64,000 nt of DNA from an uncultured Candidatus Saccharibacteria bacterium. Its GTDB lineage: Bacteria > Patescibacteriota > Minisyncoccia > Ryanbacterales > 2-02-FULL-48-12. Under the pieces are notes generated by a model that saw only the letters and a list, made by a program, of their open reading frames with translations, was not told the origin of the DNA and searched no databases. The translations under genes were made by a program, and so were the position numbers. Positions 21,483 through 34,542 of this stretch are shown here, piece after piece. The stretch covers positions 13,172 through 77,171 of the forward strand of contig CAYZNS010000002.1 of the NCBI GenBank assembly GCA_964479945.1, in the 5' to 3' direction. Position 1 is the first letter of the stretch. Each line of letters opens with the position of its first letter.

Positions 21483-21594
21483 AGTATTTTAGTCGTATTA
21501 AACATTATATGCCTTTTTTGTTCATTACAATTATTATATTAAACATAAGGGGAAAATGCAATAACCGTGAATTATTATTCTCATTTTACTCTCA

Positions 21595-21614
21595 CCCTTT
21601 TTAGCCGTTCTGTA
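21595..21614. repeat. direct repeat DR-R (overlaps the rnhB stop codon)
   Basis: Identical 20-mer to DR-L. On the minus strand it encodes the RNase HII C-terminus GCVQNG*. Confidence 0.7.
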
Positions 21615-22230
21615 CACACCCGTTAAACGTACGCCGGTGGTGGGGCGTGAGGCCGAATCTTGCTATGGATTCCCGGTGCTCCGCTGTGCCATATCCTTTG
21701 TTCCGCTCAAACCCGTAGCGCGGGTATGTATGGTGCAGGCGCGTCATATAGCGGTCGCGGTGCACTTTTGCCACAATGGAAGCCGCGGCAATCAAAGGCA
21801 CGCGCTCATCACCCTTTATGATCGTCTGCTGGTTTTTATATGCGGGAGGAGCGGCTAGACCGCCGTCTAGTAGAATTATGAATCTGGAATTATGAATTAT
21901 GGGAAATGCCTTGAGAAGTTTCCGCAATGACCTCATAACGGCGACAGAACAAGCCCATCTGATTCCGTTTTTATCAATGACAGAATGAGAAACGGAACTA
22001 ATGGTACACGGAAAGTTTTTTCTAATTATTTTATCCCACCCTTCCCTCTGTTTTGATGAAAGTCTTTTTGAATCGCGTATATTTTTTAACCCATAATTCA
22101 TAATTCCAGATTCATAATTCACCATTGCGGCCACTGCCGCAATGGTTACCGGTCCCGCCAACGGCCCCCGCCCCACTTCGTCTATTCCTATAATCCACAC
22201 CTGCGTGGCGCGTCCCTTGACTGTATCCAT
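21601..22230 (-). CDS. rnhB: ribonuclease HII
   Basis: GIDEVGRGPLAGPV, DSKRLS and LLDGG motifs. Start set at MDTVKG. Contains two in-frame insertions encoded by a perfect 31-bp inverted repeat. Confidence 0.85.
   Translation of the reverse strand: MDTVKGRATQVWIIGIDEVGRGPLAGPVTIAAVAAMVNYESGIMNYGLKNIRDSKRLSSKQREGWDKIIRKNFPCTISSVSHSVIDKNGIRWACSVAVMRSLRKLLKAFPIIHNSRFIILLDGGLAAPPAYKNQQTIIKGDERVPLIAAASIVAKVHRDRYMTRLHHTYPRYGFERNKGYGTAEHRESIARFGLTPHHRRTFNGCVQNG
21873..21903. repeat. 31-bp inverted-repeat arm 1 inside the rnhB CDS (gaattatgaatctggaattatgaattatggg)
   Basis: Exact reverse complement of 22090..22120. Translated in frame as PIIHNSRFII. Confidence 0.8.
22090..22120. repeat. 31-bp inverted-repeat arm 2 inside the rnhB CDS
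   Basis: Translated in frame as NYESGIMNYG. The arms are separated by exactly 186 bp (62 codons) containing the catalytic DSK region. Confidence 0.8.
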
Positions 22231-24332: not shown

Positions 24333-24343
24333 TTTGGTAATTT

Positions 24344-24373
24344 GGGCAAGTGGCGGAATTGGTATACTTGCCC
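24344..24373 (+). other. hairpin whose 5' half copies the first ~25 nt of the downstream tRNA-Leu (gggcaagtggcggaattggtat...acttgccc)
   Basis: 8-bp stem. The 15-nt segment aagtggcggaattgg is repeated in tRNA-Leu at 24388-24402. Confidence 0.5.
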
Positions 24374-24385
24374 GCCTATACCTGC

Positions 24386-24469
24386 GCCGAAGTGGCGGAA
24401 TTGGCAGACGCGCTAGCTTCAGGAGCTAGTATCCGCAAGGATGTGAGGGTTCGAATCCCTCCTTCGGCA
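24386..24469 (+). tRNA. tRNA-Leu(CAG), class II with long variable arm
   Basis: Manual cloverleaf: acceptor gccgaag/cttcggc, D-arm gcg-gaattggcaga-cgc, anticodon arm ctagc-ttCAGga-gctag, 15-nt variable arm, T-arm gaggg-ttcgaat-ccctc, discriminator A. CCA is not encoded. Confidence 0.85.
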
Positions 24470-24577: not shown

Positions 24578-24597
24578 CATCAAAAAACTTACAAGAG

Positions 24598-24687
24598 TAT
24601 GTCATTGCGAGCAAAGCGAAGCAATCCCATGAATATCTTAAAAAATTACGGGATTGCCGCGTCGCTTCGCTCCTCGCAATGACAACA
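24598..24687. repeat. family-A palindromic MITE-like element, core-only copy (tgtcattgcgagcaaagcgaagcaatccc ... gggattgc...ctcgcaatgaca)
   Basis: Imperfect ~90-bp palindrome. It yields the spurious ORFs SLRAKRSNP.../VIASEAKQ... and sits between the tRNA block and rnj. Confidence 0.7.
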
Positions 24688-24711
24688 TTCTATTACTAAT
24701 AAATAATCTTT

Positions 24712-26579: not shown

Positions 26580-26693
26580 TCCAATCGCAGAAAAATTGAA
26601 AATGTAAAATGCAAAAATCAAAATGACAATTCAAAATTTTAAAATTTTACATTGTCATTTTACATTTTGATTTTTAAATTTTACATTACGCTT
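26580..26693. repeat. AT-rich imperfect inverted repeat (aaaatgtaaaatgcaaaaatcaaaatgacaat / attgtcattttacattttgattttt)
   Basis: ~40-bp arms between rnj and trpS. Likely a terminator/promoter module. Confidence 0.5.
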
Positions 26694-28473: not shown

Positions 28474-28608
28474 GTAATTACGAAACTCCAAAAACATTGT
28501 CATTGCGAGGAGCGAAGCGACGTGGCAATCCCGTAATTTTCAAGGTATTCACGAGATTGCTTCGCTTTGCTCGCAATGACAATGGGTAGTTTCGTAATTC
28601 AAAGTAAG
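28474..28608. repeat. family-A palindromic element, full-length copy with terminal inverted repeats aattacgaaact/agtttcgtaatt
   Basis: Core gtcattgcgagg...ctcgcaatgac plus the conserved outer segments ttacgaaactc(c)aaaaa and gtttcgtaattcaaagtaag, which are shared with the 63527 copy. Confidence 0.7.
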
Positions 28609-33504: not shown

Positions 33505-34113
33505 ATGTCCTATCCAAAACACATCCAACGGCTCTCCGAACTCTTGACAGAACTCCCCGGCTTGGGCCCGCGGCAAGCCATGCGGCTTGCGTTTGCGCTC
33601 ACTGAAAAGAATGACGCCTGGCGCCAGGAATTCTTGGCTCTCATCGAAACGATGAGCAGCGAACTTGGCGCGTGCGCGCTTTGTTTCCGCATAATGGAAA
33701 AACGCGTGGCGGCGCTGTGCAATATATGCTCCTCCCCGAGCCGCGCAAAAGACAAACTGCTGGTGGTAGAAAAAGAATCAGACTTGGAAATGTTCGAACG
33801 CGCGAATGCCTTTGACGGCCTCTATCATGTTACGGGCGGCACGCTCTCCCCGCTTGAGAAAAACCCGGGCGAGCGTCTGCATTTGCAGGAATTGTTCAAT
33901 CGCATCAAAGCGGACCCGCAGCGCGCATCTTTGGAAGTCATCATTGCCACATCCAACACATTGGAAGGCAACCAGACCGCAAACTATATTGAGCGCATCT
34001 TGGCTCCCCTGCAGATAAAAATAACCCGCTTAGGCCGCGGGTTATCTACGGGCGCGGAGATCGAATATGCGGATCCCCTTACGCTAGAGGCAGCGTTGAA
34101 GAACAGGAACTAG
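33505..34113 (+). CDS. recR: recombination protein RecR
   Basis: HhH N-terminus, C4 zinc finger (CALCFRIMEKRVAALCNIC) and Toprim domain. Confidence 0.9.
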   Translation: MSYPKHIQRLSELLTELPGLGPRQAMRLAFALTEKNDAWRQEFLALIETMSSELGACALCFRIMEKRVAALCNICSSPSRAKDKLLVVEKESDLEMFERANAFDGLYHVTGGTLSPLEKNPGERLHLQELFNRIKADPQRASLEVIIATSNTLEGNQTANYIERILAPLQIKITRLGRGLSTGAEIEYADPLTLEAALKNRN

Positions 34114-34114
34114 T

Positions 34115-34172
34115 CTGCTGTCAAACACTAAGTGTCTGACAAGCTTGTCAGACACTTAGTGTTTGACAGCAG
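34115..34172. terminator. perfect 58-bp palindrome (29-bp arms) between convergent recR and rplU; overlaps the last 17 nt of rplU
   Basis: Every position was checked manually: position i pairs with 34287-i across 34115-34172. It contains two copies of the TGTCAAACACT half-site motif. The right arm encodes TAVKH* of L21. Confidence 0.7.
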
Positions 34173-34476
34173 TAATCTCAACCTCCGTAAAATGCTGGCG
34201 ATGCCCTTTTTTGCGGCGGTGGCGGGTTTTTGAGTGGTAGCGCAGATTTGTTATTTTTTTGGCGCGTCCATGGCGAAGTACCTTTGCGGCAACGTGGACT
34301 CCCGCAACCAGGGGCGTCCCGATTTTCGCCTCCGTTCCGTCTTCTACCAATAGCACCTCCTCAAATGAAAAATCCTTACCCTCTTCCACGGGCAGTTTTT
34401 CTATTTTGAGCTTTTTCCCCGGTTCCGCGATGTATTGCTTTCCTCCAGTTTTGATGACCGCAAACATGCTATACAT
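34156..34476 (-). CDS. rplU: 50S ribosomal protein L21
   Basis: (MYS)MFAVIKTGGKQY signature. No rpmA (L27) downstream. Confidence 0.85.
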   Translation of the reverse strand: MYSMFAVIKTGGKQYIAEPGKKLKIEKLPVEEGKDFSFEEVLLVEDGTEAKIGTPLVAGVHVAAKVLRHGRAKKITNLRYHSKTRHRRKKGHRQHFTEVEITAVKH

Positions 34477-34542
34477 AGTAACAAATCGCCTGTAAAAGTA
34501 AAGCCCCATGCCGCTGTCCGGCATGGGGTGTTCAGATGAGAA

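Follow-up and report, generated by a model that had tools for sequence, protein, structure and literature searches.

The gene for RNase HII, rnhB, of an uncultured Candidatus Saccharibacteria bacterium carries inside its reading frame a perfect 31-nt inverted repeat, whose two arms are both translated and lie on either side of the catalytic core. The gene occupies 21601..22230 on the minus strand of the 64,000-nt stretch of contig CAYZNS010000002.1 analysed here (the window, to which all coordinates refer unless a relative is named). It has an ATG start and encodes 209 amino acids before its stop codon. The product is RNase HII, matching the Pfam family RNase_HII (PF01351, 1.1e-33), with residues D17, E18, D53-S54-K55 and D122 invariant among 27 homologs. 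Its AlphaFold (AF2) model has a mean pLDDT of 85.6, and the top Foldseek matches are the RNase HII enzymes of Escherichia coli and Thermotoga maritima. The repeat is a real, non-random and evolutionarily maintained structure, which we tentatively interpret as a selected long-range mRNA stem.

The inverted repeat in rnhB

An initial annotation, made from the letters of the DNA alone, had pointed to a perfect 31-bp inverted repeat translated in frame with a spacing of exactly 62 codons, and a repeat search bears this out: the arms, at 21873-21903 and 22090-22120, are 100% complementary and separated by 186 nt. That annotation described neither the build of the arms, each of which is an array of heptamers, nor their kinship with intergenic heptamer hairpins. 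The arm that comes first in the mRNA (5′ arm, 22090..22120, minus strand) consists of about four units, GAATTAT, GAATCTG, GAATTAT and GAATTAT, followed by GGG; Tandem Repeats Finder (TRF) reports 4.3 copies of period 7 at 22092-22121. The 3′ arm (21873..21903, minus strand) is its exact reverse complement, with 4.1 copies of period 7 at 21873-21901. Both arms, and likewise those of relatives, hold at least about three tandem 7-nt copies, as heptanucleotide simple sequence repeats (SSRs) do. The enclosed 186-nt segment (21904..22089, minus strand) encodes helices alphaA-alphaC and the catalytic DSK motif (D53-K55), which had correctly been placed between the arms; R62, W65, S79 and D86, in the same segment, are also invariant in the homolog comparison.

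The 5′ arm encodes NYESGIMNYG (residues 38-47) and the 3′ arm PIIHNSRFII (residues 109-118). The two are translated codon against anticodon, and the peptides have opposite hydropathy. An in-frame insertion is indeed present at each arm; the length first stated, ~10 residues, becomes +7 residues at each site when measured against E. coli RNase HII, and about +8 and +7 codons against a homolog with empty sites (L097). In the model the 5′ arm residues form a coil or loop after strand beta2, at lower (moderate) confidence, and the 3′ arm residues form a short helix and the start of strand beta4, which carries the catalytic LLDG aspartate. From the topology of the RNase H fold we infer that both insertion sites lie at the edge of the sheet opposite the catalytic carboxylates, plausibly as permissive surface positions of the enzyme.

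Chance does not produce such a repeat readily. The best long-range inverted repeat reached 7-13 nt in ~150 unrelated rnhB genes, and the 31-mer appeared in 0 of 100 shuffles. The matches listed in a family-alignment scan of genome contigs were mainly from unrelated bacteria and were used as negative controls only. With up to 3 mismatches allowed, the only copies of the 31-mer in the 64-kb window are the two arms. The dull explanation considered at the outset, a widespread genomic repeat with both insertions present in all relatives, does not describe these data: the 31-mer is not widespread, and the insertions are missing from some relatives, both of them in L097.

The same RNase HII protein and both 31-mers are found in five contigs from separate assemblies, three from JGI (3300022563, 3300009444 and 3300025157) and two from ENA (ERZ27245644 and ERZ27245685, assembled by MEGAHIT at k141). 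These were retrieved by the intact RNase HII protein, a sample biased towards the orientation in which the gene reads through (ON). Because the structure is identical in all five, assembly error is very unlikely as its origin. A k-mer artefact was considered and ruled out by the same contigs, the k141 assemblies among them, together with homologous inverted repeats in many other assemblies.

Folding of the sense RNA from 21853 to 22140, a check proposed with the initial annotation, gives a minimum free energy (MFE) of -102.9 kcal/mol (z = -8.1); in the MFE fold the arms pair as the 31-bp helix that closes the structure. Nothing in Rfam matched at the gathering threshold; the only match with E <= 1 was to a plant miRNA precursor and scored 29.9 bits, where that family's gathering threshold is 211. 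Consensus scans for an internal promoter or terminator in rnhB stayed at chance level.

Presence and turnover of the arms in relatives

DNA was available for 19 distinct rnhB lineages at 46-70% amino-acid identity; the homologs carry the names Parcubacteria, Paceibacterota and Giovannonibacteria, which put the organism itself in Parcubacteria/Paceibacterota of the candidate phyla radiation (CPR). Arrays occupy both sites in 17 of the 19. In 12 of these 17, the window included, the arrays form a long-range inverted repeat of 20-31 nt in the same codon columns with differing bases, around loops of 170-212 nt, and these stem-bearing lineages fall into at least 5-6 sequence families. The GAATTAT unit of the window, whose arms match at 31/31 positions, recurs as a GAATTAT-type unit in L087, L166, L167 and L168 (20/23 to 28/31). 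The others use GAATCTG (L090, 27/30), GAATTTG (L173, 26/31), GAATCAA (L094, 26/30), TGAAACA (L092, 21/24), CAATTTC (L089, 19/20), AATTTCT (L172, a Giovannonibacteria metagenome-assembled genome, 26/31) and TATCTCG (L169, 22/26). At the insertion sites of L098 there is just short non-repetitive sequence. A cruder test at the protein level, for codon-anticodon compatibility, was positive in 12 of the 120 nearest protein clusters, all of them within the closest 26.

The peptides encoded by the 5′ and 3′ arms are unrelated between families (NYESGIMNYG, LYLVSSISYL, NFQFSISNEF, KFETWNMKL). Because pairing is kept while the peptides are unrelated, selection on the peptide pair is excluded. Comparison of rnhB among relatives, which the initial annotation had called for, thus reveals arms that covary and one homolog without either insertion, and shows a constraint at the level of nucleic acid.

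Turnover of the arms consists of long conservation followed by wholesale replacement: L094 and L096 share 80-83% identity in the centre and the outer gene and 37% in the arms. The rnhB of L088 (contig from ERZ1292623, P0006) is a mosaic, its 5′ part including arm 1 resembling L166 and the window and its 3′ part including arm 2 resembling L169, so that pairing between its arms is lost; either the gene recombined naturally, with a breakpoint in the enclosed segment, or the low-coverage assembly is a chimera.

The same two sites hold other structures as well. In L170, L096 and L174 they contain in-frame GC-rich mini-hairpins. At 2090-2180 of L170 (P0024, Parcubacteria Gr01-1014_29), TCCGCC-CAA-GGCGGA and TCCGCC-TCG-GGCGGA stand in tandem, followed by CAATTTT repeats, with a terminator-like look. 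Site 1 of L096 has the mini-hairpins GAAGTCCGACTTC and GGAAGTCGAACTTCC, and at site 2 of L174 CCTACCTGCCGGTAGG breaks up a GAATTAT-type arm.

Covariation and synonymous constraint

The codon alignment used for covariation was guided by the proteins alone and is blind to pairing. Columns that form the stem in the window pair elsewhere with other bases: 22 Watson-Crick and 3 G.U pairs in L169, 23 pairs in L089, 20 each in L092 and L173, and 18 in L172. Both sides have changed in 19 of the 25 gap-free stem pairs. Paired cells make up 75%; shuffling the partners between lineages lowers this to 63 +/- 2% (0.70 at most over 2000 shuffles), and sliding the partner by 1-3 nt lowers it to 31-47%. Pairing of arm 1 with arm 2 within a lineage exceeded random cross-lineage pairing in 100000 of 100000 permutations. 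Compensatory change of this kind is what marks a conserved structure element in RNA (or single-stranded DNA).

Heptamer arrays permit several pairing registers, and in the codon alignment most families pair in register. An argument from lineage differences in the reading-frame relation of the arms was withdrawn, since several registers are possible. One register and a loose unit, GAATYWN, are common to all families, and changes at a unit position recur in all four units of both arms; such parallel change is concerted evolution.

Within the GAATTAT family (61-84% amino-acid identity), synonymous-codon identity, the share of identical residues that use the same codon, is 0.86 for arm columns; it falls to 0.55 for the centre, which is just as AT-rich, and to 0.49 for the outer gene. 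The difference between arms and centre has p = 3e-12 over pooled, non-independent pairs, and each single pair points in the same direction. L087, L166 and L167 retain the same 3-nt internal mismatch. In the window lineage, arm 2 has TCC AGA instead of TCA AAA opposite CTG in arm 1, and the 3-nt mismatch is closed.

The enclosed segment also differs in composition. In the window its G+C content at third codon positions (GC3) is 0.35, against 0.62 in the outer gene. Enclosed minus outer GC3 averages -0.18 in the inverted-repeat lineages and -0.02 +/- 0.08 in 146 other rnhB genes (Mann-Whitney p = 1e-6, phylogeny not corrected for). At four-fold sites of the enclosed segment, G and C both fall, about equally. 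A need for an unstructured loop and exposure as single strands are both possibilities for this dip.

Other heptamer hairpins in the window

Period 7 accounts for 9 of the 20 non-overlapping tandem arrays in the window and for 5 of 44 in 230 kb of other bacteria. It accounts for 28 of 44 arrays in the Parcubacteria loci, most of the 28 being the rnhB arms for which the loci were fetched. Some heptamer arrays stand alone; most are inverted pairs in intergenic DNA. A hairpin of AAAATGC-type units (26592..26687, plus strand) directly follows the RNase J stop codon, and one of AAAGTGC x3.7 and ACTTTGC x4.7 (41485..41582, minus strand) follows a multicopper-oxidase gene. An AGATTCA array structure lies in the intergenic spacer at 43076-43115, and a CAAAGTG-type inverted repeat with a 65-85-nt loop lies between same-strand genes (44206..44340, minus strand). 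A ~50-bp hairpin of TCAAAAC x7.9 and TTTGAGT x7.4 (62094..62200, minus strand) exactly fills the spacer between nusB-NUDIX and rnc. Further AT-rich hairpins or arrays with a 7-nt period were seen in the spacers at 41023-41049 and 63110-63135.

All heptamer structures outside rnhB lie in spacers, mostly between same-strand genes, and none lies under a credible long open reading frame (ORF). The unit varies by locus (GAATTAT, AAAGTGC, TCAAAAC, AAAATGC, TGAAATC and AATTGCA over the 64 kb covered), so that the one or few favoured units expected of short tandemly repeated repetitive (STRR) sequences are not found within these 64 kb. No in-frame arrays were found in other conserved genes of the window or of the relatives' flanks; rnhB is the only one. 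A strand-specific wobble test on the intergenic hairpins gave no significant signal. The rnhB repeat thus belongs to a class of heptamer-repeat hairpins specific to the clade, of which it is a translated representative with its arms set apart.

Three repeats of other kinds were noted in the window. Between two divergent small ORFs without a Pfam match, an inverted repeat of 9-nt units (TAATTATCC-type; 44761-44799 and 44881-44918) has arms of up to 49 nt at 80% match and a loop of 59-90 nt; it could be an operator or promoter region. A perfect palindrome of 29+29 nt with no spacer (CTGCTGTCAAACACTAAGTGTCTGACAAG and its reverse complement, 34115-34172), not based on heptamers, lies between the convergent ORFs 33505..34113 (plus strand) and 34156..34524 (minus strand) and is probably a bidirectional terminator. 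The dispersed GC-rich repeat CATTGCGAGCAAAGCGAAGCAATC has 3 copies, with 0 expected, at 24603-24626 (plus strand), 28555-28578 (minus strand) and 63604-63627 (minus strand); the copy within 24596-24700 belongs to a larger palindrome. It resembles repetitive extragenic palindromic (REP) sequences and is unlike the rnhB arms.

Genomic context

The gene order in relatives is secG (divergent), rnhB, rpmF, nusB-NUDIX, rnc, smc; an SBP_bac_5 protein gene and dnaE are other neighbours of rnhB there. In the window, rpmF, nusB-NUDIX (62199-63104) and rnc lie at 61.4-63.5 kb, preceded by murG. The rnc gene (61390..62085, minus strand) encodes an RNase III with a dsrm domain (double-stranded RNA-binding domain, dsRBD), a candidate enzyme for long perfect RNA helices. 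Just upstream of rnc, where the window has its ~50-bp heptamer hairpin, long hairpins of other sequence are also present in L166 (3900-4020) and L174 (5075-5145). By analogy with the E. coli rnc operon, the hairpin upstream of rnc may be an RNase III autoregulatory leader.

Downstream of rnhB, where relatives have rpmF-nusB-rnc, the window has at least 21 kb of accessory-type genes (1-21482), among them genes for an AAA_14/DUF4143 ATPase, RhuM, an N6 methyltransferase, Ig-domain/dockerin proteins, and MerR and HTH regulators. The arrangement suggests that an island insertion or a rearrangement next to rnhB is likely. As for the earlier proposal that rnhB was the integration target of the adjacent island, what stands is its consistency with synteny, rpmF directly following rnhB in relatives. 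Just past the rnhB stop codon, GTGAATTATTATTCT at 21567-21581 is 87% complementary to the start of the 5′ arm (22108-22122); AT-rich DNA could yield such a match by chance, or this may be what remains of a third copy at the boundary of the island. The single tRNA-Leu(CAG) gene at 24386-24469 lies between the SBP_bac_5 gene and that for RNase J, and 24340-24385 repeats its 5′ part (GGCGGAATTGG...), which suggests a partial duplication.

Interpretation

RNase III needs a helix of roughly 20 bp, and a perfect 31-bp helix is a canonical substrate of the enzyme. The predicted fold of the rnhB message offers an uninterrupted helix beyond this length in a genome that encodes rnc. Our preferred interpretation, held tentatively, is a selected long-range stem, most likely an RNase III-type mRNA helix, renewed by slippage and templated correction. 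The complementary arrays would sit in two insertion-tolerant surface loops of RNase HII; in the mRNA the arms would pair as a perfect 31-bp A-form helix that closes off the 186-nt segment of the DSK core, and selection would keep them complementary. When translating ribosomes do not part the arms, cleavage or ribosome blockage at the helix would inactivate the message, and the output of rnhB would thereby be tied to translation and to the activity of a nuclease for double-stranded RNA (dsRNA). The arrays would arise from the same heptamer-repeat process as the intergenic hairpins of the clade, and their renewal would come from slippage and from templated correction in which one arm serves as template for the other. 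Such renewal would account for the heptamer periodicity, the parallel change in all eight units and the 31/31 match. The existence and position of the arms, their covariation, the constraint on synonymous sites, the heptamer build, the kinship with the intergenic hairpins and the presence of rnc are observed; the working form as RNA, the action of RNase III on it and the regulatory consequence are inferred.

A stem in the mRNA around the catalytic core was among the possibilities raised by the initial annotation, and it fits folding and covariation best; it is unproven, and several findings weigh against it. Five lineages (L088, L096, L170, L171 and L174) have heptamer arrays at both sites that are non-complementary, and both insertions are missing from L097, which makes the stem dispensable. 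Because of the relatedness of the lineages, the covariation tests overstate independence, the independent events being the ~5-6 families and not 17 lineages. Selection for pairing alone cannot yield periodicity or parallel unit change, and a DNA-level process is therefore needed as well. The mismatches have no sense-strand wobble bias (16 G.U against 11 A.C, p = 0.44) and do not tell an RNA form from a DNA form, and in the intergenic hairpins both strands fold with equal ease. Nor do rnhB and rnc lie side by side in this genome, where murG precedes rpmF. Finally, among segments of equal size from the other genes of this genome, 7% have a GC3 of 0.35 or lower; the GC3 signal rests on recurrence across lineages, not on this genome alone.

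The main rival reads much of the same evidence without any function, which we consider possible though on balance unlikely. The slippage and intramolecular template switching of the clade would make AT-rich heptamer arrays and palindromes, coding products would survive only in two permissive loops of RNase HII, and complementarity would come from templated copying, not from selection. Such a tolerated by-product would fit the dominance of period 7 in the window (9/20) and in relatives (28/44, mostly rnhB arms) against 5/44 elsewhere, the intergenic inverted pairs that make up most arrays, and the literature, which ascribes over-represented heptamers to polymerase slippage (PMC4692102, PMC4679880). 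It would also fit the in-frame GC mini-hairpins at the rnhB sites of L170, L096 and L174, the wholesale replacement between L094 and L096 (37% identity in the arms against 80-83% outside), the five non-complementary lineages and the empty one, the parallel change of all four units in both arms, the lack of G.U bias, and two insertion sites that, by the inferred topology, sit in loops or at edges distant from the end of the sheet that bears the active site. Neutral arrays should, however, diverge synonymously, and the GAATTAT arms do not (0.86, against 0.55 in the equally AT-rich centre). Homogenisation is not continuous either, since L087, L166 and L167 retain the same 3-nt mismatch; rnhB is the sole conserved gene with in-frame arrays in the window and the relatives' flanks, though permissive loops are common; and the low GC3 of the enclosed segment is left unexplained. 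A functional element acting as DNA, namely a hairpin of the lagging-strand template, a recombination substrate or paired sites for a protein that binds heptamer arrays, is distinctly improbable. To its credit are 31/31 Watson-Crick pairs without wobble, mismatches free of strand bias, an AT shift that affects third-position G and C about equally as if both strands were exposed, and GAATYWN-like units in one register across families, which resemble iterated binding sites. A binding protein would nevertheless need a new specificity in each lineage and would not fit the AAAGTGC, TCAAAAC and AAAATGC arrays of the same genome; no candidate protein is linked to the rnhB locus in relatives, and the cruciform site raised by the initial annotation is unlikely, as a spacer of 186 nt puts extrusion from duplex DNA at a severe kinetic disadvantage.

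The remaining explanations treat the arms as the ends of something that moves or turns, or as a matter of protein or assembly. Identical 31-bp inverted repeats are a classic substrate for inversion, and here the spacer is a whole number of codons. Recombination between the arms would flip the 186-bp segment, forming a junction of GAATTATGAATTATGGG with AAATGCCTTGAGAAG, and the predicted product would stop after 8 new codons (KCLEKFPQ, then stop), a clean OFF state of rnhB and potentially a phase-variable mutator or repair state. We consider such a switch very unlikely: all five contigs (5/5) are ON, though look-up by the intact protein favours ON; a search of the protein collection for the OFF product, a weak test that scored just 3 candidates, returned only an unrelated 41-aa fragment; no recombinase gene is conserved beside rnhB in relatives; the arms are imperfect in most relatives (20-28 matched bases), which is poor for homologous inversion; and they vary by lineage, which leaves no conserved recombinase site. 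A mobile element or homing footprint, in the form of a 248-bp unit like a miniature inverted-repeat transposable element (MITE) or a Rickettsia palindromic element (RPE), or of a cassette with terminal inverted repeats, might be suspected from the lower GC of the arms and enclosed segment relative to the rest of the gene, from the L088 mosaic with arms of different families, and from the in-frame palindromic elements known in Rickettsia. It is highly improbable, as the window has no further copy of the 31-mer and 2.9 million viral contigs have none, the hexamers flanking the unit, CTAGTA and ACCATT, form no direct repeat and hence no target-site duplication, the enclosed segment is orthologous RNase HII with invariant DSK, R62, W65, S79 and D86, L094 and L096 have the centre in common and not the arms, and the true dispersed repeat of this genome (CATTGCGAGCAAAGCGAAGCAATC, 3 copies) looks quite different. 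The recombinase or homing footprint of the initial annotation is accordingly not supported: there are no dispersed copies in the window, no viral ones, no target-site duplication and no adjacent recombinase in relatives, and inversion would lead to a stop codon. Selection on a pair of peptides, for example as interacting strands, with incidental complementarity of the DNA, and an assembly artefact are both effectively refuted. The opposite hydropathy given by codon-against-anticodon reading could suggest the one, and an arm length of 31, a common assembler k-mer size, the other; the peptides, however, are unrelated between families while base pairing is kept, third codon positions are constrained, arm 1 is a coil of moderate confidence in the model, and the structure is identical in five contigs, including those of MEGAHIT at k = 141, with homologous repeats in many assemblies.

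The mRNA stem may be part of something broader. One could imagine, as a doubtful extension, that in this Parcubacteria clade translated, co-evolving heptamer arrays act as an intragenic dsRNA switch, a helix like a processing stalk around the codons of the rnhB catalytic core, read by RNase III or another dsRNA reader. It would stand within a genome-wide hairpin system that includes the rnc leader, and the arrays would be renewed by transcription- or structure-dependent homogenising as reported at the hmw locus of Haemophilus influenzae. If true, this would amount to a new kind of regulatory element within coding regions, with each strand of the helix doubling as codons. A functional stem would in any case be a rare long perfect helix built wholly from translated codons, kept through at least 5 sequence turnovers in a conserved repair and replication enzyme. 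It would matter in CPR/Patescibacteria, which do not grow alone and whose gene regulation is almost unknown, and would give a handle on the role of the abundant heptamer-repeat hairpins in these genomes, as well as a natural system in which to separate repeat slippage, templated palindrome correction and selection on RNA pairing. If the repeat is a mere by-product, the clade has a mutational process of its own that writes heptamer palindromes into proteins, which bears on the annotation of CPR proteins, where low-complexity segments of the NFQFSISNEF type recur, and on how insertions in these proteins are to be read.

Comparison with known systems

The limited selection of literature searched contains no account of heptamer hairpins from a CPR genome, nor one of an inverted repeat within rnhB. 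Bacterial heptanucleotide SSRs are over-represented in certain lineages, at ~4 copies and with slippage as the proposed origin; examples are the cyanobacterial STRR sequences, GGGAATC-type repeats of Xanthomonas and Nostoc, and the TAACTGA arrays of Beggiatoaceae (PMC4692102, PMC4679880). They are likewise mostly intergenic and occasionally inverted with stem-loop potential. Genomes rich in them have one favoured unit, whereas here each locus has its own unit, typically paired as a hairpin; and unlike the known heptanucleotide SSRs, the rnhB arrays are in frame, 186 nt apart and co-evolving.

In the 5′ untranslated region (5′-UTR) of the hmw genes of H. influenzae, an (ATCTTTC)n heptamer repeat forms an RNA hairpin that is cut by RNase III; the hairpin controls expression, and hairpin, transcription and RNase III affect repeat turnover (PMC12721329). 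At hmw as in rnhB, a heptamer array forms an arm of a long RNA hairpin. The hmw array lies in the 5′-UTR, where its 10 or more repeats pair with a G-rich arm that is not itself repetitive, and its role is phase variation of an adhesin. In rnhB the predicted helix is formed by two arrays, each of them translated, around coding sequence of a housekeeping enzyme.

RNase III also processes the E. coli rnc leader hairpin, which gives autoregulation, and the long-range helices on either side of pre-16S and pre-23S rRNA. The pre-rRNA stems resemble the rnhB repeat in that distant complementary segments form a helix of at least 20 bp around a functional segment. These stems and the rnc leader are non-coding, whereas the rnhB helix, predicted from sequence, consists of translated codons inside an ORF.

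RPEs are, like the rnhB arms, palindromic and translated as extra peptides at permissive protein sites. They are contiguous 100-150-bp units of dispersed families with many similar copies per genome. The rnhB arms, in contrast, have native coding sequence between them, occur nowhere else in the window and are lineage-specific; neither a dispersed family (in the window at up to 3 mismatches, or in the viral contigs) nor a contiguous unit, with the target-site duplication that a MITE would have, was found. Invertible switches (Hin/Gin, fim, shufflons) are similar in that inverted repeats flank a segment whose orientation sets whether a gene is intact; rnhB differs in having no linked recombinase in relatives, no conserved site and one observed orientation in five contigs.

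Quasipalindrome correction, the Ripley-type templated mutation in which intramolecular template switching perfects imperfect inverted repeats, accounts for several simultaneous changes in the window lineage (TCA AAA to TCC AGA). It is a mutational mechanism and not an element, and its usual spacers are a few to tens of nt, against 186 nt here. The rnhB element shares the heptamer array with SSR and STRR sequences and with the hmw hairpin, the long-range helix with the RNase III stalks, a possible mode of action with both the hmw hairpin and those stalks, and the translated palindrome with RPEs, and belongs to none of these classes.

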